A DNA stretch of 32,000 bases from Natronobacillus azotifigens (GTDB taxonomy: Bacteria > Bacillota > Bacilli > Bacillales > Amphibacillaceae), in assembly GCF_026805325.1 (NCBI RefSeq), contig NZ_JAPRAT010000028.1:2249-34248 (forward strand). Direction: 5' to 3'. The notes under the pieces were generated by a model that worked only from the letters and a program-made list of their open reading frames with translations, was not told where the DNA came from and did not search any database. The position numbers and the translations under genes are program-made. Of this stretch, positions 4,487-28,812 are shown piece after piece (position 1 is the stretch's first letter; each line of letters begins with the position of its first letter).

Positions 4487-4666
4487 TTTATCCCGGAGCA
4501 ATCGTTCGTAAGACTCCCACTTCAAAACACCGAGAATATCAAGTGGTTTACGTGAGAGTAACGGACGCTAACACCCCCAAGGTTTTAAGGGCCTTTAGGT
4601 CATCTTTTAGAACTAACAATCGTGGGGGAATACCAAAAACCCTCACTGATTGAAGTTTCACTTTAT
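4487..4666 (+). repeat. intergenic repeat, copy A (full length, 180 nt)
   Basis: Strand convention for this family: + means the strand on which the element reads TTTATCCCGGAGCAA ... CTGATTGAAGTTTCACTTTAT.
Copy A aligns collinearly with the reverse complement of copy F (28232..28414). By hand alignment the two are roughly 85-90% identical.
Hairpin 1 is CAATCGTGGGGG (4617-4628) paired with CCCTCACTGATTG (4640-4652). TTTAT sits at both ends (4487-4491 and 4662-4666).
The copy lies in the divergent prfC / SNF2 intergenic region. Confidence 0.9.
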
Positions 4667-4812: not shown

Positions 4813-7800
4813 ATGCGCGCTATTTTTTTAGAACAACAAGATATTATTAAAATTACTGGGCAACGTTTTTACAAAAGAGGTTATGAGTATTTTAAAAAAG
4901 GAAGAATACATGGGCTTAACTATAATCCAATGATCGATTCTTGGAGTGCTCAAGTTCGTGGTGCACAAAACTATCAGGTGCGTGTCTTCTTTTTCGAAAA
5001 CGAAGAATTAGAAGCAAAGTGTAATTGCCCCGCATATGAAACGCACTACACTTGTAAGCACATTGCAGCGGTCTTACTGTCGATTACTCAGCAAAGTCAA
5101 CGGCATGACAAACAAGATCGTTATAAAACAAAACAAGCGGAAAAGCAAACGGCTTCAATGAGTGATCCTTTTCCTTTGCGGATGATCGAAGCCTTTGAAA
5201 CCATTCATACGCCTCAAAACCAAAGTACAAATTTTTTACAAGTCGATTATATGTTGTCTTTAAAGAAAGGTATATCAAGCAACCAATCCATGCTTACGGT
5301 AGAGTTAAAGGTTGGTGAACATCAACTCTATATTATTAAAGATATTCGTGATTTTTTAATTGTCGTCCAAAACGAACAACTTTTTGATGTTACAAAAAAA
5401 TTCACCTACGATCCAAGGAAACATGTATTTTCAGAAGATGATCAACAGCTGTTAAACAACCTATTTGAGGCGCAGCAACAAGAGTCGATCTATGCTAGTG
5501 ATTATTATGAACACGATAAAAGATCGCTATGCCTTCCAGCTTATTTAGTAGACTCATTCCTTAATACTATTGGCAACTTACCACACTCCCTAACAACCGA
5601 AACAGGTGAGGTGTTAACTGAGATCAAACGACATGACCAAATACCAAAATTGGTTTTCCCTGTTGAAATGGAAAGCGAACAAACTTTTTTAATCGATTTT
5701 TCTGATTTATTTATTTATCGATATTTAACGAACTATGGTTATTTGTTAAAAGAAAATAATTTTTATAAATTATCGACAGAACAACGAACCATTATTGATC
5801 AATTATATCGACTTCTTCCTTACCGGAATAAACAATCGCACCGAATTACAAATGAGACAATGGGAACATTCACTTCACATGTTATCCCTGTTTTAGAAAA
5901 AATCGGTAAAATTCATTATTCAATGGAAGCAGAAAGAAAGATACTATCTTTTCCTTTGGAAACAAAGATTTATTTTGAAGAAAAGAAAAATGCATTGTCT
6001 GCCACTATCACTTTTGATTATGGACCATATCAGTTCTTAGCCTTTCAAAAGAAATCAAACAATGATGCCGTAATCAAACGTGATGCCATAAAAGAGACTA
6101 GAATTATTAACTTACTTGAGCAAGCAGGTTTTCATTATCTTAACCAACATTTTCAACTGTTTAATCATGCTCAAATTTATCAATTTCTCCATGAAGGATT
6201 AGAGGAATTAGAAAACCATGCTACAATTTTTCTGTCCGATCAAGTGGAAAACTTGCTTTCAGATAATGAACCAATCTTAGAAACAAACATTGGTGTAAAC
6301 AAAACAACAGGTATGCTTGATATTTCTTTTGATATGGAAGGAATATCAGGCCAAGAAGTACAAGCTGTATTGCAAGCATTAGTGGAAAAGAAACAATATT
6401 ATCGTGTCACGGACGGGCCATTATTGAAATTAGATGACGAATCCTTTCTTTCCTTCCAAGCCTTTGCTGAAACGTTGCAATTAAAGAAGAAAGACCTGAC
6501 TAACTCACAGATAGAACTAAGCGCTGCACGTAGTTTTCAAGTGGAAGATAGTTTTTCACCAGAAGTTGCCCGTTACCAAACGACATTTAATCATTTATTA
6601 ACCAATTTAACGCATCCTCAAGATACCACTGTAAACGTTCCTTCTACGTTAAAAGCTACGTTACGTGATTATCAAACAACAGGATTCTATTGGTTAAAGT
6701 CGCTTTCTAGATATAAACTCGGTGGAATTTTGGCTGATGAGATGGGGCTTGGTAAAACCATACAAACTATTTCCTTTTTACTAAGTGAACAAGAGGAAAA
6801 AGGAACAGAACACTATCAAGCAATGGTGATCGCACCAGCATCACTTGTATATAACTGGAAAAAAGAAATAGAAAAGTTTGCTCCCTCACTCACCACCAAA
6901 ATTATCATAGGAACAAAATCGGAACGTGAAAAGCAAATACAAGCAGATAAACAAGTGAATATTTTCATTACTTCATACCCACTAATTCGTAAAGACATTG
7001 AACTGTATGAAAGCTATGAATTTGATGCACTAATTTTGGATGAGGCACAGGCCATAAAGAACCATTTGACGTTAACTGCGAGAGCCACTAGACTTATTCA
7101 AGCCAAACAACGCTTTGCCTTAAGTGGAACGCCAATTGAAAATGGACTTGAGGAATTATGGTCTATTTTTCAAACGATCTCACCAGGCTTTCTAAGTACA
7201 AAAAGACACTTCTTATCACTAAACATAGATTACGTAAAAAGAATAACTCGCCCATTTATTTTACGACGTTTAAAAGAAGAGGTTTTGTCTGAACTACCAG
7301 CCAAAATAGAAACAGAACAATATGCAGAGTTAACCAAACAGCAAAAAGAAGTCTATCTCGCATATTTAGAGAAAATGCAAACAAGTTTAGCTGAGACGAT
7401 TGATTCGAACGAGTTTAATAAAAGAAAATTAGAGGTCCTAGCGGGTTTAACACGATTGCGGCAAATATGTTGCCATCCTTCATTGTTTCTAGAAAACTAC
7501 GAGGGGCAATCAGGGAAATTAGAACATTTACAATCATTAGTTACCGAGTTAAGAGCAAACGGAAAACGGCCACTAATCTTTTCACAGTTTTCAAGTATGT
7601 TGAAGATCATCCACGACAGATTAGCTTCTGAAGGACACAAACTCTTTTATTTAGACGGTTCTACTCCTTCACAAGAAAGAGTGGAAATGGCTGATGCCTT
7701 TAATGATGGTGAAAAAGATATCTTTCTCATTTCATTAAAAGCCGGGGGTACAGGACTAAATTTAACTGGAGCTGATACAGTAATTTTGTATGACTTATGG

Positions 7801-8025
7801 TGGAATCCTGCTGTTGAGGCACAAGCAGCTGGTAGAGCACATCGGATCGGCCAAAAAAATGTTGTTCAAGTGATTCGATTAATTACTACAGGTACAATTG
7901 AAGAAAAAATCTATCAACTTCAAGCCAAAAAGCGGGAACTTGTTGATCAAGTGATTCAACCAGGAGAAACGATGCTTACTTCCCTGACAAAAGATGAATT
8001 ACAAGAATTACTAGCGATACAGTAA
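4813..8025 (+). CDS. SWIM zinc-finger / SNF2-family helicase (YwqA/RapA-like)
   Basis: The 1070-aa ORF has the SD AAGGAGAA 5 nt upstream of its start.
- N-terminal SWIM motif CNCPAYETHYTCKH (CxC-x8-CxH, nt 5020-5061)
- A long middle domain
- SNF2 ATPase motifs LADEMGLGKT (I), LILDEAQAIKN (II), SGTPIEN (III)
- Helicase C motifs LKAGGTGLNLTGADTVILYDLWWNPAVEAQAAGRAHRIGQ. Confidence 0.9.
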   Translation: MRAIFLEQQDIIKITGQRFYKRGYEYFKKGRIHGLNYNPMIDSWSAQVRGAQNYQVRVFFFENEELEAKCNCPAYETHYTCKHIAAVLLSITQQSQRHDKQDRYKTKQAEKQTASMSDPFPLRMIEAFETIHTPQNQSTNFLQVDYMLSLKKGISSNQSMLTVELKVGEHQLYIIKDIRDFLIVVQNEQLFDVTKKFTYDPRKHVFSEDDQQLLNNLFEAQQQESIYASDYYEHDKRSLCLPAYLVDSFLNTIGNLPHSLTTETGEVLTEIKRHDQIPKLVFPVEMESEQTFLIDFSDLFIYRYLTNYGYLLKENNFYKLSTEQRTIIDQLYRLLPYRNKQSHRITNETMGTFTSHVIPVLEKIGKIHYSMEAERKILSFPLETKIYFEEKKNALSATITFDYGPYQFLAFQKKSNNDAVIKRDAIKETRIINLLEQAGFHYLNQHFQLFNHAQIYQFLHEGLEELENHATIFLSDQVENLLSDNEPILETNIGVNKTTGMLDISFDMEGISGQEVQAVLQALVEKKQYYRVTDGPLLKLDDESFLSFQAFAETLQLKKKDLTNSQIELSAARSFQVEDSFSPEVARYQTTFNHLLTNLTHPQDTTVNVPSTLKATLRDYQTTGFYWLKSLSRYKLGGILADEMGLGKTIQTISFLLSEQEEKGTEHYQAMVIAPASLVYNWKKEIEKFAPSLTTKIIIGTKSEREKQIQADKQVNIFITSYPLIRKDIELYESYEFDALILDEAQAIKNHLTLTARATRLIQAKQRFALSGTPIENGLEELWSIFQTISPGFLSTKRHFLSLNIDYVKRITRPFILRRLKEEVLSELPAKIETEQYAELTKQQKEVYLAYLEKMQTSLAETIDSNEFNKRKLEVLAGLTRLRQICCHPSLFLENYEGQSGKLEHLQSLVTELRANGKRPLIFSQFSSMLKIIHDRLASEGHKLFYLDGSTPSQERVEMADAFNDGEKDIFLISLKAGGTGLNLTGADTVILYDLWWNPAVEAQAAGRAHRIGQKNVVQVIRLITTGTIEEKIYQLQAKKRELVDQVIQPGETMLTSLTKDELQELLAIQ

Positions 8026-9662: not shown

Positions 9663-9771
9663 TTTATCCCCGAGTAACGGACGCTATCACCCCGAAGGCT
9701 TCAAGGGCCTTTAGGGCTAACAATTAGTGAGGAAATACCTAACTCCCCCACTGATTGAAGTTTCACTTTAT
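9663..9771 (+). repeat. intergenic repeat, copy B (internally deleted, 109 nt)
   Basis: The sequence is TTTATCCCCGAG|TAACGGACGCTATCACCCCGAAGGCTTCAAGGGCCTTTAG|GGCTAACAATTAGTGAGG...CCCCACTGATTGAAGTTTCACTTTAT.
Both ends and hairpin 1 are present. The whole left arm and loop of hairpin 2, plus a 12-nt segment, are missing relative to copies A and F.
The copy lies between the minJ stop and the floT start. Confidence 0.88.
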
Positions 9772-11254: not shown

Positions 11255-11319
11255 CATCCTGATATAACTAACCATCATAGGCACAGACAAAACCCTTAAT
11301 GATTGAAGTTCTATCTTAT
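11255..11319 (+). repeat. intergenic repeat, copy C (degenerate hairpin-1 module)
   Basis: The sequence TCATCCTGATATAACTAACCATCATAGGCACAGACAAAACCCTTAATGATTGAAGTTCTATCTTAT aligns with the last ~65 nt of copies A and F. The GATTGAAGTT core is intact, but hairpin pairing is only partly retained. Its terminal TTA (11316-11318) is the ctpB stop codon on the other strand. Confidence 0.6.
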
Positions 11320-12803
11320 TGAAAAAGTACTTCAAATGCTTTTTCACGTTGCAGATCGTTCTCTCCACTTCTTATCTGTTCTATCAAGTTCACTTGAAGC
11401 AATTCAGCTGTTTGGCTATTTAATTCGCCCGATTCTTCAATTGATTGATCTGATTGGAATTGGATCAGAGCATCTTCTGTTTGTTGACTAAAATACCCAT
11501 CGGTTCGGTCAACTTGATATCCCAGTCCTCGGAGCATAATTTGAGCGAAGCCAATATTGTCATCACTATCATTATAGACAAACGCATCTTCTTCTACTTG
11601 GATCGGAGCTACATAATAATACTCTGGTTGTTCAACCTCAATGGTTGGCTCTACACCAACACGATGTATCGATGTGCCTTCAGGCGATAACCAATTAAAC
11701 AAGGTTAATTTGATTGAACTGCCATCTCCCATTGGAATTGTCTGTTGAACAGTTCCCTTTCCAAAACTTGTCGTACCAACAATTGTTGCGTCTATTGCTT
11801 CACGTAATGAGATCGCTAAAATTTCTGAAGCAGATGCGCTGCCTTCATCAATTAAAACACTAATAGGATAATCTTTTGGTTCTTCAAGAGTAGAGTAGTA
11901 ACGCTCCACCTCACCTTGACCATCTTCAATTTGCATGTATGGCTGATCTTTGGTTATAAAGATTTGTAAGATATCTTGAATCACTGGCAATAACCCACCA
12001 GGATTACCTCGAACATCAATCACTAAGCCGTCAATACCTTCATCTTCTAATGTCGCTAAATCTTCTTTAAAACGCGCACCAGTATTTTCAGAAAAAGAAG
12101 TTATTTGAATAAACCCTACATGATCTCCATTGACTTCTTGACTTTCTGTATAAACAGTCTCAAGAGGAATCGTATCACGTACCAACGTTATCGTTATCTC
12201 GTTGGACACCCCAGGGCGAATAATTTCGAGGGTAACTTCTGATCCCTTTTCTCCACGAATTTTTGATACAGCTTCAAACAGATCTAACCCTTCGACACTT
12301 TCGTCATCTACAGTTAAAATTTGATCATTTGGTCGCAAACCTGCTTTTTCAGCCGGAGAATCTTTAATTGGTGCAACAATGGTCACACGACCATCTACCA
12401 TGCTTACCTCTGCACCTATCCCCTCAAATGAGGATTCAATTTGTTCATTAAATCGCTCCATTGATTCCGAATCCATGTATTCACTATACGGATCATCTAA
12501 TGTATTAAGCATGCCACGCACAGCACCCTCAATCAGATCATCATCTTCGACTGATTCTAGAAAGTATTCTTGTATAATTTGAAACGCTTGAACAACCTTT
12601 GGCAATGCTACAGAATCACTGATACTTTCAATGATTTCTTGATATTCAGCTTCTGATAGAGTGGTTGTGCCATCTGATTCTTCGGTCAAATCATACATAG
12701 GCGAATCCTCTGTAAAGAACATTGTACCAAAGTATGTACCTATCCCCCCTAGGAAAACAGCTAAAATAATCATGGTTACGAAAAGACTTTTCTTTATTTG
12801 CAC
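11316..12803 (-). CDS. ctpB: S41 carboxy-terminal processing protease with PDZ and C-terminal peptidoglycan-binding domains
   Basis: Features, in order:
- signal-anchor sequence
- PDZ domain (GIGAEVSMVDGRVTIVAPIKDSPAEKAGLRPNDQILTVDDESVEG)
- S41 core (DVRGNPGGLL, GSASASEILA, FGKGTVQ)
- C-terminal PG-binding-like repeat (TEDALIQFQSDQSIEESGELNSQTAELL)
The track start is GTG 12812. GTG 12803 has a better SD (GAGGTGA, 5-nt spacer). The symbol is assigned from synteny with B. subtilis ctpB (yvjB). Confidence 0.85.
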   Translation of the reverse strand: MQIKKSLFVTMIILAVFLGGIGTYFGTMFFTEDSPMYDLTEESDGTTTLSEAEYQEIIESISDSVALPKVVQAFQIIQEYFLESVEDDDLIEGAVRGMLNTLDDPYSEYMDSESMERFNEQIESSFEGIGAEVSMVDGRVTIVAPIKDSPAEKAGLRPNDQILTVDDESVEGLDLFEAVSKIRGEKGSEVTLEIIRPGVSNEITITLVRDTIPLETVYTESQEVNGDHVGFIQITSFSENTGARFKEDLATLEDEGIDGLVIDVRGNPGGLLPVIQDILQIFITKDQPYMQIEDGQGEVERYYSTLEEPKDYPISVLIDEGSASASEILAISLREAIDATIVGTTSFGKGTVQQTIPMGDGSSIKLTLFNWLSPEGTSIHRVGVEPTIEVEQPEYYYVAPIQVEEDAFVYNDSDDNIGFAQIMLRGLGYQVDRTDGYFSQQTEDALIQFQSDQSIEESGELNSQTAELLQVNLIEQIRSGENDLQREKAFEVLFQ

Positions 12804-12856
12804 AATATTCACCTCAATAATTTGTCCTATTCTTCTAGTGTATCATATTTATGTGG

Positions 12857-17524: not shown

Positions 17525-18626
17525 TTAATTCATTTGTTCACGTAAGTATGCATTGATGAAAGGATCTAAATCCCCATCCAGTACAGATTGTGTATTGCCT
17601 GTTTCTACATTTGTACGATGATCTTTTACCATAGAATAAGGGTGGAAAACGTAAGAACGAATCTGACTTCCCCAACCAATTTCTTTTTGTTCACCACGAA
17701 TTTCACTAATCTCTGCTTGTTGCTTCTCAATCTCCAATTGATAAAGCTTAGCTTTTAACATCTTCATTGCTTGTTCTCGGTTTTTGATTTGCGAACGCTC
17801 AGACTGGCAGGTTACAACCGTGTTCGTAGGTACATGAGTAATTCGAACAGCTGAATCAGTCGTGTTTACATGCTGACCACCCGCACCACTAGCACGATAC
17901 GTGTCAATTTTTAGATCTTCTGTATTAACCTCGATATCGATGTCATCGTCTAATTCGGGCATGACTTCACACGAAGCAAAAGAAGTGTGTCTTCTTCCGG
18001 ATGAATCAAATGGAGAGATTCGAACAAGACGGTGAACTCCTTTTTCAGCTTTTAAATAACCATAAGCATTATGCCCTGTAATCAATAGTGTAACACTTTT
18101 CACACCTGCTTCTTCCCCTGGTAAATAATCAAGTGTTTCCACTTTAAAATTCTTTCGTTCTGCCCAACGTGTATACATTCGAAGCAGCATACTAGCCCAG
18201 TCTTGTGATTCGGTTCCCCCTGCACCTGGATGAAGCTCCAATATTGCGTTACTCTTATCATAAGGTTCACTAAGAAGAATAAATAATTCGAACTCATTCA
18301 AAGCTTTTGTTAAAGGAATTAATTCATCTTCTAACTCTTGTCTAAGATCCTCATCCGCTTCTTCCTTGACCAACTCATAAGAAACTTCCAGATTTTCAAG
18401 ACTCTCCACATGCTTATCAAAAGTTTGGACTAGTTCTTTAAGGGCATTAGCCTCGTTTATAACCTTCTGTGCCGCTTGTTGATCATTCCAGAATTCAGGG
18501 TCACTCATTTCCGCTTCTAATTCAGCGATACGCGTTCGCTTTTCTTCTAAGTCAAAGAGACCCCCTAAAGTCTGTTAATTTTGTTGCCATTTTCTCAAGT
18601 TCTTGCTTTATTTCTGCTAATTCCAA
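17525..18626 (-). CDS. prfB: peptide chain release factor 2 (RF2), expressed via programmed +1 frameshift
   Basis: The track ORF 17525..18508 carries the RF2-specific SPF (RISPFDS) and GGQ (SGAGGQHVN) motifs.
ORF0 starts at TTG 18626 with the SD GAGGTGAAG. It reads [24 protein letters not shown] and then hits the in-frame TGA at 18554-18552.
A shift to +1 at CTT TGA C joins it to [21 protein letters not shown].... Confidence 0.93.
18551..18566 (-). promoter_or_regulatory. prfB +1 frameshift (recoding) site
   Basis: The minus strand reads AGG GGG TCT CTT TGA C. This is an internal SD-like AGGGGG three nt upstream of the slippery CTT, followed by the TGA C stop. It is the textbook RF2 autoregulatory signal. 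Confidence 0.92.
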
Positions 18627-24518: not shown

Positions 24519-24635
24519 CTGTACACCTCTTCCTAAGAGAAAAATCGCTTCGTCCATTGCTTTGCGGTTCCATTATAGTTTTCCAAAAAAAGCTCAACAT
24601 ACCGACTCTTTTACATTACCCTTAATGAATAAGGG

Positions 24636-24689
24636 GAAATTCAATCAGTGAGGTTTTTATCCTCCCCACTGATTGAAGTTTCACTTTAT
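24636..24689 (+). repeat. intergenic repeat, copy E (hairpin-1 module only)
   Basis: The sequence is CAATCAGTGAGG (24642-24653) TTTTTAT CCTCCCCACTGATTG (24661-24675) AAGTTTCACTTTAT. The last 20 nt before the final T are identical to copies A, B and F. TTA at 24686-24688 is the xylA stop codon on the other strand. Weak similarity may extend left to about 24608. Confidence 0.85.
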
Positions 24690-27604: not shown

Positions 27605-28150
27605 TTAATTCGGTTCAATTAAGGCATATTTTCCGTCATTTCTTCGGTAAACTACATTGGTATCTCCAGATTCTGCATTGGTAAATACAAAGAAGTTGTG
27701 ACCTAGCATATCCATTTGTAAAATTGCTTCCTCTGAATCCATTGGTTTTAGATCGAATCGTTTCGTACGAACAATTTCTAAACCATCTTCTTCGTCATAG
27801 TCTAATGTTTCATCTTCCATTTCAGCAAAAACATGTTTTGGAGCACCTTTTTGACGGATTCTTCGATTGATTTTGGTTTTATATTTTCTAATTTGTCGTT
27901 CTAACTTATCTACTACTAAATCAATTGCTGCATACAAATCTGTATGCTTTTCCTCCGCTCTTAGTAATAAGTTCGGCATTGGAATCGTAACCTCAATTTC
28001 TTGCTCTTCATTATAGACACTTAAATTCACATTGACATCTGACGTTGGAGGGGTGTCAAAATAACGTTCTAGCTTGCTAATCTTTTTCTCCACATACTCT
28101 TTTATTGCTCCTGTCACCTCAACGTTTTCACCTCTAATGTTATATTTCAT
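27605..28150 (-). CDS. hpf: ribosome hibernation promoting factor, long form (YvyD-type)
   Basis: The 181-aa ORF has the SD GAAAGGAGGA. Its N-terminal YfiA/S30AE domain opens MKYNIRGENVEVTGAIKEYVEKKISKLERYF. Its C-terminal dimerisation domain is EAILQMDMLGHNFFVFTNAESGDTNVVYRRNDGKYALIEP. Confidence 0.95.
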   Translation of the reverse strand: MKYNIRGENVEVTGAIKEYVEKKISKLERYFDTPPTSDVNVNLSVYNEEQEIEVTIPMPNLLLRAEEKHTDLYAAIDLVVDKLERQIRKYKTKINRRIRQKGAPKHVFAEMEDETLDYDEEDGLEIVRTKRFDLKPMDSEEAILQMDMLGHNFFVFTNAESGDTNVVYRRNDGKYALIEPN

Positions 28151-28231: not shown

Positions 28232-28414
28232 ATAAAGTGAAACTTCAATCAGTGGGGGTTTTTAGGTATTCCCCCACTGATTGTTAGCCCTAAAGGATGA
28301 CCTAAAAGGCCTTTGAACCATTCGGGGTGCTAGCGTCCGTTACTCCCACTTAAACAACTTGTTTTTCTTGTTGTTTTGAAGTGGGAGTCTTACGGACGGT
28401 TGCTCCGGGATAAA
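28232..28414 (-). repeat. intergenic repeat, copy F (full length, best-preserved, 183 nt)
   Basis: Layout on the plus strand:
- ATAAAGTGAAACTT at the left end
- hairpin 1, a perfect 13-bp stem: CAATCAGTGGGGG (28246-28258) / CCCCCACTGATTG (28271-28283)
- a 50-nt linker containing AAAGGCCTTT
- hairpin 2: CGTCCGT-T-ACTCCCACTT-AAACAAC (28334-28358) pairing with GTTGTTT-(TG)-AAGTGGGAGT-(CTT)-ACGGACG (28370-28398), about 24 bp with bulges
- TTGCTCCGGGATAAA at the right end
It lies between the hpf promoter and the DUF4190 gene. Confidence 0.92.
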
Positions 28415-28527: not shown

Positions 28528-28812
28528 ATGGAAACGCAACAATATCGACCAGCACCACCAACAAACGGAAAAGCTATTGCTTCAATGGTTATTGGAATCT
28601 TATCAATTATTATTGTATGGTTAGGTGTGGTACTAGGTATTATTGGTATCGTCCTTGCAAATCGTTCATTGAAAGAGATTACTGCCACCGAACAAGGGGG
28701 CAGGGGCATGGCTATTGCAGGTCTAACAACCAGTATTATCGGGACATCGATCCATGGCATTCTTCTTTTCTTTATGTTAATATCATTAATAACTTTTAGG
28801 AGCGCATTCTAA
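28528..28812 (+). CDS. small DUF4190-type membrane protein (94 aa)
   Basis: The SD AAAGGTGA lies 7 nt upstream. The protein has a Pro-rich N-terminus and two TM helices bracketing LANRSLKEITATEQGGRGMAIAGL, the typical DUF4190 layout. The overlapping track ORFs 28376..28624, 28506..28760 and 28617..28799 are judged spurious. Confidence 0.75.
   Translation: METQQYRPAPPTNGKAIASMVIGILSIIIVWLGVVLGIIGIVLANRSLKEITATEQGGRGMAIAGLTTSIIGTSIHGILLFFMLISLITFRSAF

Follow-up and report, generated by a model that had tools for sequence, protein, structure and literature searches.

The 32-kb stretch analyzed here (positions 2,249 to 34,248 of contig NZ_JAPRAT010000028.1 from Natronobacillus azotifigens, hereafter the window) is a Bacillaceae chromosome segment with a G+C content of 36.9% that carries uvrB, prfC, ftsEX, prfB, secA, xylAB, xylR, hpf, fliS and fliD. 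At 28232–28414 on the minus strand, between hpf (27605–28150, minus strand) and a divergent 94-aa open reading frame (ORF; 28528–28812), lies a 183-nt repeat, copy F, the best preserved of the seven copies or fragments that the family covariance model detects in the window. The repeat belongs to a family found across Bacillales, and its left end resembles that of IS200/IS605 insertion sequences (IS) encoding the TnpB nuclease. It is probably a palindrome-associated transposable element (PATE) of the bcr1 (Bacillus cereus repeat 1) family, moved in trans by a transposase encoded elsewhere. A first-pass annotation, made from the letters of the window, had suggested either an IS200/IS605 PATE or a REPIN-like origin, and its guess turned out to be largely right.

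Anatomy of the element

Three models recur below, namely R1, the covariance model of the family, which includes copies from the B. cereus group, R2, representing repeat left ends only, and R3, representing the right end. Copy F reads TTTATCCCGGAGCAA...GATTGAAGTTTCACTTTAT on the minus strand and is laid out as TTTAT-CCCGGAGCAAC-long hairpin-linker-short hairpin-AAGTTTCAC-TTTAT. Its features, all on the minus strand, are listed from left to right end.

28232–28414, minus strand: copy F, 183 nt, full length; R1 75.6 bits, E 1.6e-15, whole model covered
28410–28414, minus strand: left-boundary TTTAT, the presumed target (transposon-adjacent motif, TAM), the element lying 3′ of it; found before the left end of most family copies and of related TnpB elements
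28334–28398, minus strand: left-end long hairpin with outer stem CGTCCGT/ACGGACG, internal loop AAG(A) and inner stem ACTCCCACTT.../...AAGTGGGAGT, identified by fold, covariation and R2
28388–28391, minus strand: AAGA directly 5′ of the inner stem, where IS200/IS605 elements have their left DNA guide (G_L); putative guide
28284–28333, minus strand: linker specific to the subfamily, CTAGCACCCCGAATGGTTCAAAGGCCTTTTAGGTCATCCTTTAGGGCTAA, which in the alignments exceeds that of the canonical 155-nt family by about 25 nt
28246–28283, minus strand: right-end hairpin with a perfect 13-bp stem CAATCAGTGGGGG/CCCCCACTGATTG and a 12-nt loop, identified by fold; stem nearly invariant in 46 copies
28232–28245, minus strand: right tail AAGT-TTCAC-TTTAT, its terminal TTTAT being read as inserted DNA; ISBth16 and ISGst2 have TTCAC as their right-end cleavage motif

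Folded as single-stranded DNA (ssDNA), copy F reaches -42.7 kcal/mol (z = -8.05), and none of 200 shuffles was equally stable. The fold contains both subterminal hairpins noticed in the first pass: a bulged long hairpin of 24 bp (7+10+7; element positions 17–81) and a short one with its perfect 13-bp stem (positions 132–169), 14 nt away from the boundary. The termini had been described as not being inverted repeats of each other, and this was borne out, with a best ungapped match of 12/30 when the first 30 nt were compared with the reverse-complemented last 30 (shuffle mean 10.8, 95th percentile 13). Across the repeat family GTAAG(A) is invariant or almost so, and a module similar to the linker, GGGCCTTTAGGTCAT, is present in a copy from Virgibacillus salarius.

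The left hairpin is conserved as a structure. Across 34 diverse left ends, 95.1% of the cells in its stems are standard-paired, and nine pairs covary, with 48 cells changed on both sides; no column shuffle among 500 scored as high, although this control overstates the significance since the copies are related. When the pairing partners were slid, pairing fell to 33–49%. These slid controls, together with several independent stem variants, carry the case that the left-hairpin structure is selected, as judged from the alignments. From the differences between copies F and A (4487–4666), the first-pass annotation had favored a decaying DNA element over a selected structure. This view holds for copy A only, which folds at -19.8 kcal/mol (z = -1.1), no better than shuffles, and is therefore decaying; its poor fold fits the mostly non-compensatory A/F differences. 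It fails for the family as a whole, in which the two stems of the long hairpin show strong covariation.

The bases that immediately follow TTTAT can also pair with the 5′ arm of the long hairpin to form a small alternative hairpin (alignment A2, columns 25–41). Four subfamilies preserve this pairing with different sequences (CCCG/CGGG, CAG/CTG, CCG/CGG and CGG/CCG), and ISBth16 has a comparable small hairpin, GAATTC...GAATTC, after its target. Among 30 IMG/VR loci, three forms were observed at a single orthologous prophage site in the B. cereus group: full length, lacking the inner hairpin, and carrying a deletion between the two GTGGGGG arms, a pattern suggestive of slippage in place between repeated arms.

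Left-end homology with IS200/IS605 TnpB elements

According to Meers et al., ISGst2 from Geobacillus stearothermophilus uses TTTAT as TAM and TTCAC as transposon-encoded motif (TEM), and DNA guides beside the hairpins pair with the TAM/TEM motifs. The same study reports that TnpA works in trans on many tnpB-only elements, that ISGst2 was moved experimentally by TnpA acting in trans, and that PATE-like derivatives exist among ISGst relatives.

Two elements on B. cereus-group plasmids were delimited by comparing copies in different flanks. Hyphens marking the boundaries, ISBth16 (tnpA + tnpB) reads TTTAA-CGAATTC...GGCGGGTAGTTCAC-, and a tnpB-only element reads TTTAT-CATTTTAGCCAAGAAGA(CTCCTTCCTCAAGG..TAGGTGGGAG)ATGAATTGGC...(CCCCCTCTTC..GTGGGGG)TAGTTCAA-. 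The left ends of the repeat and of the tnpB-only element follow a common plan: TTTAT-C at the boundary, an outer stem, AAGA, the inner stem CTCC(C/T)(A/T)CCTCAAG...TAGGTGGGAG, AT-AA, and the return of the outer stem.

The left-end model R2 matched TnpB elements of B. cereus-group plasmids with 25.4 and 23.1 bits (E 2e-4 and 7e-4). At a threshold of E < 1, it found 35 matches among 100 tnpB loci from metagenomes and viral contigs, all upstream of tnpB and on the tnpB strand, the best scoring 33–37 bits (E about 1e-6 to 1e-5 in 283 kb). These E-values are rough, owing to a shortened calibration, but they leave a wide margin, and the consistent position of the matches counts as evidence independent of them. 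The matched IS left ends begin at TTTAT beside unrelated flanks, and in the alignment they show the same order of outer stem, AAGA, inner stem CTCCCACCTCAAG...TAGGTGGGAG, ATGAA and outer stem. Their outer stems covary between lineages (GGCGA/TCGCC, GCCAA/TTGGC, CGACA/TGTCG and AGCAA/TTGCT), and some TnpB relatives have 17 consecutive bases, AAGACTCCCACCTCAAG, in common with repeat copies. Target and guide correspond as well, TTTAT going with AAGA, AATA or AAAA, and TTTAA with GAAT (in ISBth16 and one further locus). On these comparisons of sequence and structure, the long left hairpin is homologous to the left-end hairpin of TnpB-encoding IS200/IS605 elements, which, together with the TTTAT and AAGA in common, the single-TTTAT empty site described below and the lack of terminal inverted repeats, favors the IS200/IS605-PATE origin suggested at first pass.

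Some apparent relatives were discarded. The similarity to ISBth16 is by itself too weak to count (16.8 bits with R1, 9–12 bits with R2). An IS605-type element encoding TnpA and TnpB in two of the loci, with right end ...GGGAGTGTCAA, is unrelated to the repeat, and plasmid matches to the right end only are truncated copies beside ordinary genes. On plasmid pGR340, about 470 nt separate a tnpB-only element that targets TTTAT from the end of the cry1Da pesticidal crystal protein gene.

Insertion at TTTAT

Plasmid p507 of B. mycoides is occupied by a copy at a site that is empty in six sister plasmids with 99–100% identical flanks. In a pair whose flanks are 100% identical, the empty site, ...GGTTTTTTTAT-ACTCTAAAG (the hyphen marking the insertion point), contains a single TTTAT, and the occupied site reads ...TTTAT-CCCGC...TTTCACTTTAT-ACTCTAAAG, so that 152 nt ending in TTTAT are inserted at one TTTAT. 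The pentamer follows TTCAC in 14 of the 21 right ends that were not chosen for TTTAT, and three further right ends are one substitution away from it (CTTAT, TATAT and TAAAT).

Within the window, TTTAT stands at both ends of copies A, B and F, and the retained ends of C, E and G are CTTAT, TTTAT and GTTAT, respectively, as the first-pass annotation had read them; everything that it described directly was confirmed. These flanks are not due to chance, since TTTAT occurs in the window at a background of only 0.0028 per position-strand. No empty site was found for the copies of the window; the only related strains, from food metagenomes, are occupied at A, B and F, and their contigs break in the repeats.

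A family spread across Bacillales

The exact 23-nt right end CACTGATTGAAGTTTCACTTTAT is present in at least 111 stretches, and its carriers represent more than 20 Bacillales genera among the matches listed, including Niallia, Sporosarcina, Paenibacillus, Oceanobacillus, Lysinibacillus, Cytobacillus, Peribacillus, Virgibacillus, Psychrobacillus and B. cereus-group species. Thirty IMG/VR viral contigs carry it as well, and prophages are among the carriers. Most family copies measure 150–160 nt, with the consensus TTTAT-CCCGCATTAACGGGCAGTAAGACCCCCACCTCAAG..TAGGTGGGGGATCAACTGCCCGTAAAAGCCCGATTGGTTCAACTAACAATCAGTGGGGGATGAAGAAAACCCCCACTGATTGAAGTTTCACTTTAT, and the canonical copies also fold into two stem-loops. 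A canonical copy of about 155 nt aligns with B. cereus-group plasmid copies over 98–100% of its length at 82–91% identity.

Bcr1 has been described as a repeat of about 155 bp that is flanked by direct repeats of TTTAT, forms two stem-loops and is more abundant in the B. cereus group than any other repeat; it belongs with bcr2 and bcr3 to group A (Okstad 2004, Klevan 2007, Kristoffersen 2011). We infer, with little room for doubt, that the present family is the published bcr1. The copies in the window form a divergent subfamily, in which the outer stem has been replaced in a compensated manner and the linker is about 25 nt longer; similar variants occur at loci of Oceanobacillus, Aquibacillus and Virgibacillus. 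In blastn comparisons only the 3′ third of copy F (positions 124–183) matches B. cereus-group plasmid copies. Its full-length score of 75.6 bits was obtained with R1, a model that includes B. cereus-group copies. A full-text literature search with the terminal sequence of the repeat returned nothing relevant.

The family further comprises mini-forms of about 55 nt, composites of 210–340 nt, and head-to-tail arrays with one common TTTAT. In the mini-forms, seen at seven loci from several genera, TTTAT CCCGCATTAACGGGCAGTAAGACCCCCAC is fused directly to TGATTGAAGTTTCACTTTAT, and they look like deletions between two CCCCCAC repeats. The composites, also from seven loci, contain a second repeated module, ...GGAACACAGACTAAG...GTCTGTGTGACCCAC...CCTGTGGG..., located between both hairpins or within the loop of the right hairpin; it may be another small element nested inside, or possibly a bcr2/bcr3-like sequence. 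One 5.5-Mb replicon of Bacillus sp. N5-665 (NZ_CP093325.1), labelled ‘plasmid p1’ and evidently the chromosome, carries at least 40 copies.

Other copies in the window and in the host genome

The other six copies and fragments recognized by R1 in the window are the following.

4487–4666, plus strand: copy A, 180 nt, full length, 88% identical to F, long hairpin decayed; 62.3 bits; between prfC and a Snf2-family helicase gene
9663–9771, plus strand: copy B, 109 nt, TTTAT at both ends, 5′ arm and loop of the long hairpin deleted; 48.8 bits
11211–11319, plus strand: copy C, degenerate, ending in CTTAT; 36.9 bits
17142–17318, minus strand: copy D, full length, strongly decayed; 26.4 bits; upstream of prfB
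24629–24689, plus strand: copy E, solo right-end hairpin and tail in the xylA-xylB spacer, ending in TTTAT; 30.9/27.8 bits
26163–26245, minus strand: copy G, decayed left-end fragment starting with GTTAT; 17.3 bits, E 0.038; between xylA and a ROK-family regulator gene

All seven are intergenic, and together they make up 16% of the non-coding DNA of the window, an extreme example of expansion given the host-wide copy number. In the 3.56-Mb, isolate-like host assembly, the word depth is about 175,000 at position 28304 versus about 360 in single-copy DNA, a ratio that translates into several hundred copies of the element, roughly 500. Host contigs terminate within repeats, and copies of the element thus break short-read assemblies. 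Eight host contigs jump from 28414 directly to 28232, i.e., they contain head-to-tail copies with two TTTAT pentamers between them, unlike the tandem copies of other genera, which have one TTTAT in common.

Copies often lie on stop codons and in untranslated regions (UTRs). The terminal CTTAT of copy C (11315–11319) overlaps the TAA stop of a convergent S41 protease gene (11316–12812, minus strand), the terminal TTTAT of copy E (24685–24689) supplies or overlaps the TAA stop of xylA, and the same overlap of the terminal pentamer with a stop codon was seen beside plasmid copies at three loci. Gene ends would be frequent targets because ATAAA contains TAA. Among the neighboring genes, the Snf2-family helicase gene directly downstream of copy A (4813–8025, plus strand, 1070 aa) has as its best match, below the curated cut-off, a ‘pilus expression-regulating Snf2 family helicase’ model. 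The prfB ORF (17525–18508, minus strand) aligns with the RF2 model only from position 31 of the model onward, and the programmed +1 frameshift site usual for this gene probably lies just upstream of the ORF.

Proposed mechanism and alternative explanations

The reading that we consider likely is that the repeat is a non-autonomous IS200/IS605 derivative (PATE) of the bcr1 family that a Y1 TnpA mobilizes in trans and places 3′ of TTTAT, its right end, for which no IS parent was traced, bringing its own TTTAT. The repeat would travel as single-stranded DNA. A Y1 (HUH) TnpA encoded elsewhere in the genome would bind the subterminal hairpins, and the AAGA guide at the left hairpin would pair with the flanking TTTAT. 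Excision would be exact, with a left cut at the boundary after TTTAT and a right cut after the terminal TTTAT of the element rather than after TTCAC, and reinsertion would take place 3′ of another TTTAT without target duplication. Because the element ends in TTTAT, each insertion would recreate the target at its own 3′ end, which would explain the head-to-tail arrays and help explain the bloom to several hundred copies. A likely source of the trans-acting Y1 TnpA is ISBth16, whose tnpA is frequent on plasmids of the B. cereus group (197 Bacillus records). More tentatively, the repeat could be a hybrid, self-seeding PATE, combining a genuine IS200/IS605 left end with a right end that has no counterpart in the sampled IS and ends in its own target TTTAT. 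If true, the tandem arrays, the occurrence in more than 20 genera and in prophages, and the roughly 500 copies in a 3.6-Mb genome could be accounted for in this way, and it would be the first mechanistic answer to how bcr1 moves.

Several observations weigh against an IS200/IS605 derivative. Known IS200/IS605 elements have two similar hairpins. With R3, no right end of an IS was detected in 10 + 100 loci, and right-end motif scans of 160 TnpB loci were negative. The right hairpin of the repeat, CAATCAGTGGGGG...CCCCCACTGATTG, presents its G-rich arm first, while the hairpins of related IS present the C-rich arm first, and the likeness to IS right ends is confined to the short tail hairpin-[T/A]AG-T(T)TCA[C/A]. 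The idea, offered as speculation in the first pass, that the element could be related to a TnpB guide-RNA scaffold found no backing either: Rfam gave no match, and the right end, where an omega-RNA would be expected, is without counterpart in the TnpB elements searched with R3. The coding parent then envisaged between the two ends did not appear, as no tnpA or tnpB separates them in the 111 genome loci, the 160 TnpB loci or the plasmid collection. In the 111 genome loci the sole large spacing between left and right ends is unrelated and no other held a coding insert, a motif screen of these loci showed no TnpA- or TnpB-like ORF, and no blastn match of window and canonical copies to plasmids and phages fell under a transposase gene. 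The right boundary is 5 nt beyond the conserved TTCAC, so that cleavage after the terminal TTTAT is an assumption. With the majority coding strand taken as a proxy for the direction of replication, copies are only weakly skewed in orientation (44 same, 29 opposite, p = 0.10). Lastly, the occupied/empty comparison proposed at first pass yielded one TTTAT in the empty site of the sister plasmids, and the pair fits an element ending in its own TTTAT and a 5-bp target duplication equally, the sequence not separating a duplicated from a flanking target.

This last ambiguity, a TTTAT at either end of the element and a single one in the empty site, would also be produced by a MITE-like (miniature inverted-repeat transposable element) repeat for which an unidentified double-strand transposase or site-specific recombinase targets and duplicates TTTAT, its IS200/IS605-like left end reflecting ancestry and not the present mechanism. 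Such is the view of the bcr1 literature, and a right end unlike those of IS200/IS605 elements agrees with it. We nevertheless regard it as unlikely: terminal inverted repeats are missing, and the left end keeps the full IS200/IS605 grammar, with its guide position and covarying stems, which would not persist if unused. We know of no candidate enzyme for such a reaction. Related tnpB elements show varied sequence and no TTTAT after their TTCAA end, and that tnpB family hence does not duplicate its target. A classical MITE, i.e., a derivative of a DDE transposon, was rejected, as it had been in the first pass, for want of terminal inverted repeats and of variable target duplications.

Covariation of the structure, the intergenic position of all seven window copies, and the frequent transcription of bcr1–bcr3 copies in UTRs and operon spacers reported in the literature could instead indicate a structured RNA or DNA selected by the host in cis (a UTR stabilizer, a terminator or a protein-binding site) and not a selfish mobile element. 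This appears very unlikely, given that copies in the window and 124 others are mixed in orientation to neighboring genes, that they decay and lose internal parts in place, that they reach hundreds per genome, and that their presence differs between otherwise identical plasmids. Moreover, the region of copy F contains no predicted terminator-like site, its promoter-like matches do not exceed those of shuffles, and Rfam returned nothing at gathering thresholds, with only chance-level matches at permissive ones. The other origin named at first pass, a REPIN-like element (REP being a repetitive extragenic palindromic sequence) mobilized by a REP-associated tyrosine transposase (RAYT), shares with the repeat its structure-based nature, its lack of inverted terminal repeats and its abundance, and RAYTs are related to IS200/IS605 TnpA. 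It is hardly credible here, since copy F is not a pair of inverted short REP palindromes and has no GTAG/CGTC-type head, the left end matches those of TnpB elements instead, and no RAYT-like gene was found among the ORFs of the window.

Comparison with known systems

Among the known elements closest to the repeat are the TnpB-only elements with a TTTAT TAM, represented in our comparison by ISGst2 and by the unnamed element next to cry1Da on pGR340 and its relatives (five loci). The TTTAT-C boundary, the outer stem, the position of AAGA, the inner stem CTCCCACCTCAAG...TAGGTGGGAG and the ATxAA return are all common to both, and TTCAC, found near the right end of the repeat, is the TEM of ISGst2 and ISBth16. 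In contrast, the repeat has no tnpB, its right hairpin is unrelated, and it ends in TTTAT and not in TTCAA or TTCAC. ISBth16 resembles the repeat in its left-end architecture, in the inner-stem motifs CCTCAAG and TAGGTGGGAGAT, and in a right end that closes with hairpin-TAG-TTCAC; it differs in its target (TTTAA) and guide (GAAT), and the profile similarity is weak (9–17 bits).

PATEs are non-coding derivatives of IS200/IS605 elements that typically keep both ends of the parent IS. The repeat is like them in being short and non-coding, with subterminal hairpins, no inverted repeats and a fixed flanking target, but only its left end can be traced to an IS. REPINs with their RAYTs and classical MITEs (Correia, RUP, BOX) are likewise small, abundant, structured and intergenic; the repeat lacks the inverted REP doublet of the former and the terminal inverted repeats and variable target duplications of the latter.

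With bcr1, the repeat has in common TTTAT at both ends, two independent stem-loops, multiple intergenic copies, and presence or absence between close strains. The copies in the window are longer (180–183 nt versus about 155 nt) by virtue of their linker, and their outer stem reads CGTCCGT/ACGGACG, with compensating changes, in place of CGGGCAGT/ACTGCCCG in bcr1-type copies. Their host, with the gene order fliD-fliS-hpf-xylR-xylAB-secA-prfB, lies outside the B. cereus group. Bcr1 has been catalogued in B. cereus-group genomes for more than 20 years and is regarded as specific to that group, and recent reviews state that its mobility mechanism is uninvestigated; the right end of the family, however, occurs in more than 20 genera among the matches listed, which implies a host range far wider than thought, across Bacillales and into prophages. 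Left-end homology, the correspondence between target and guide, and the clean occupied/empty pair together provide a testable mechanism for bcr1, namely trans-mobilization by a Y1 TnpA of the ISBth16/ISGst type. In addition, every copy sets TTTAT, the TAM of related TnpB nucleases, beside new sequence.

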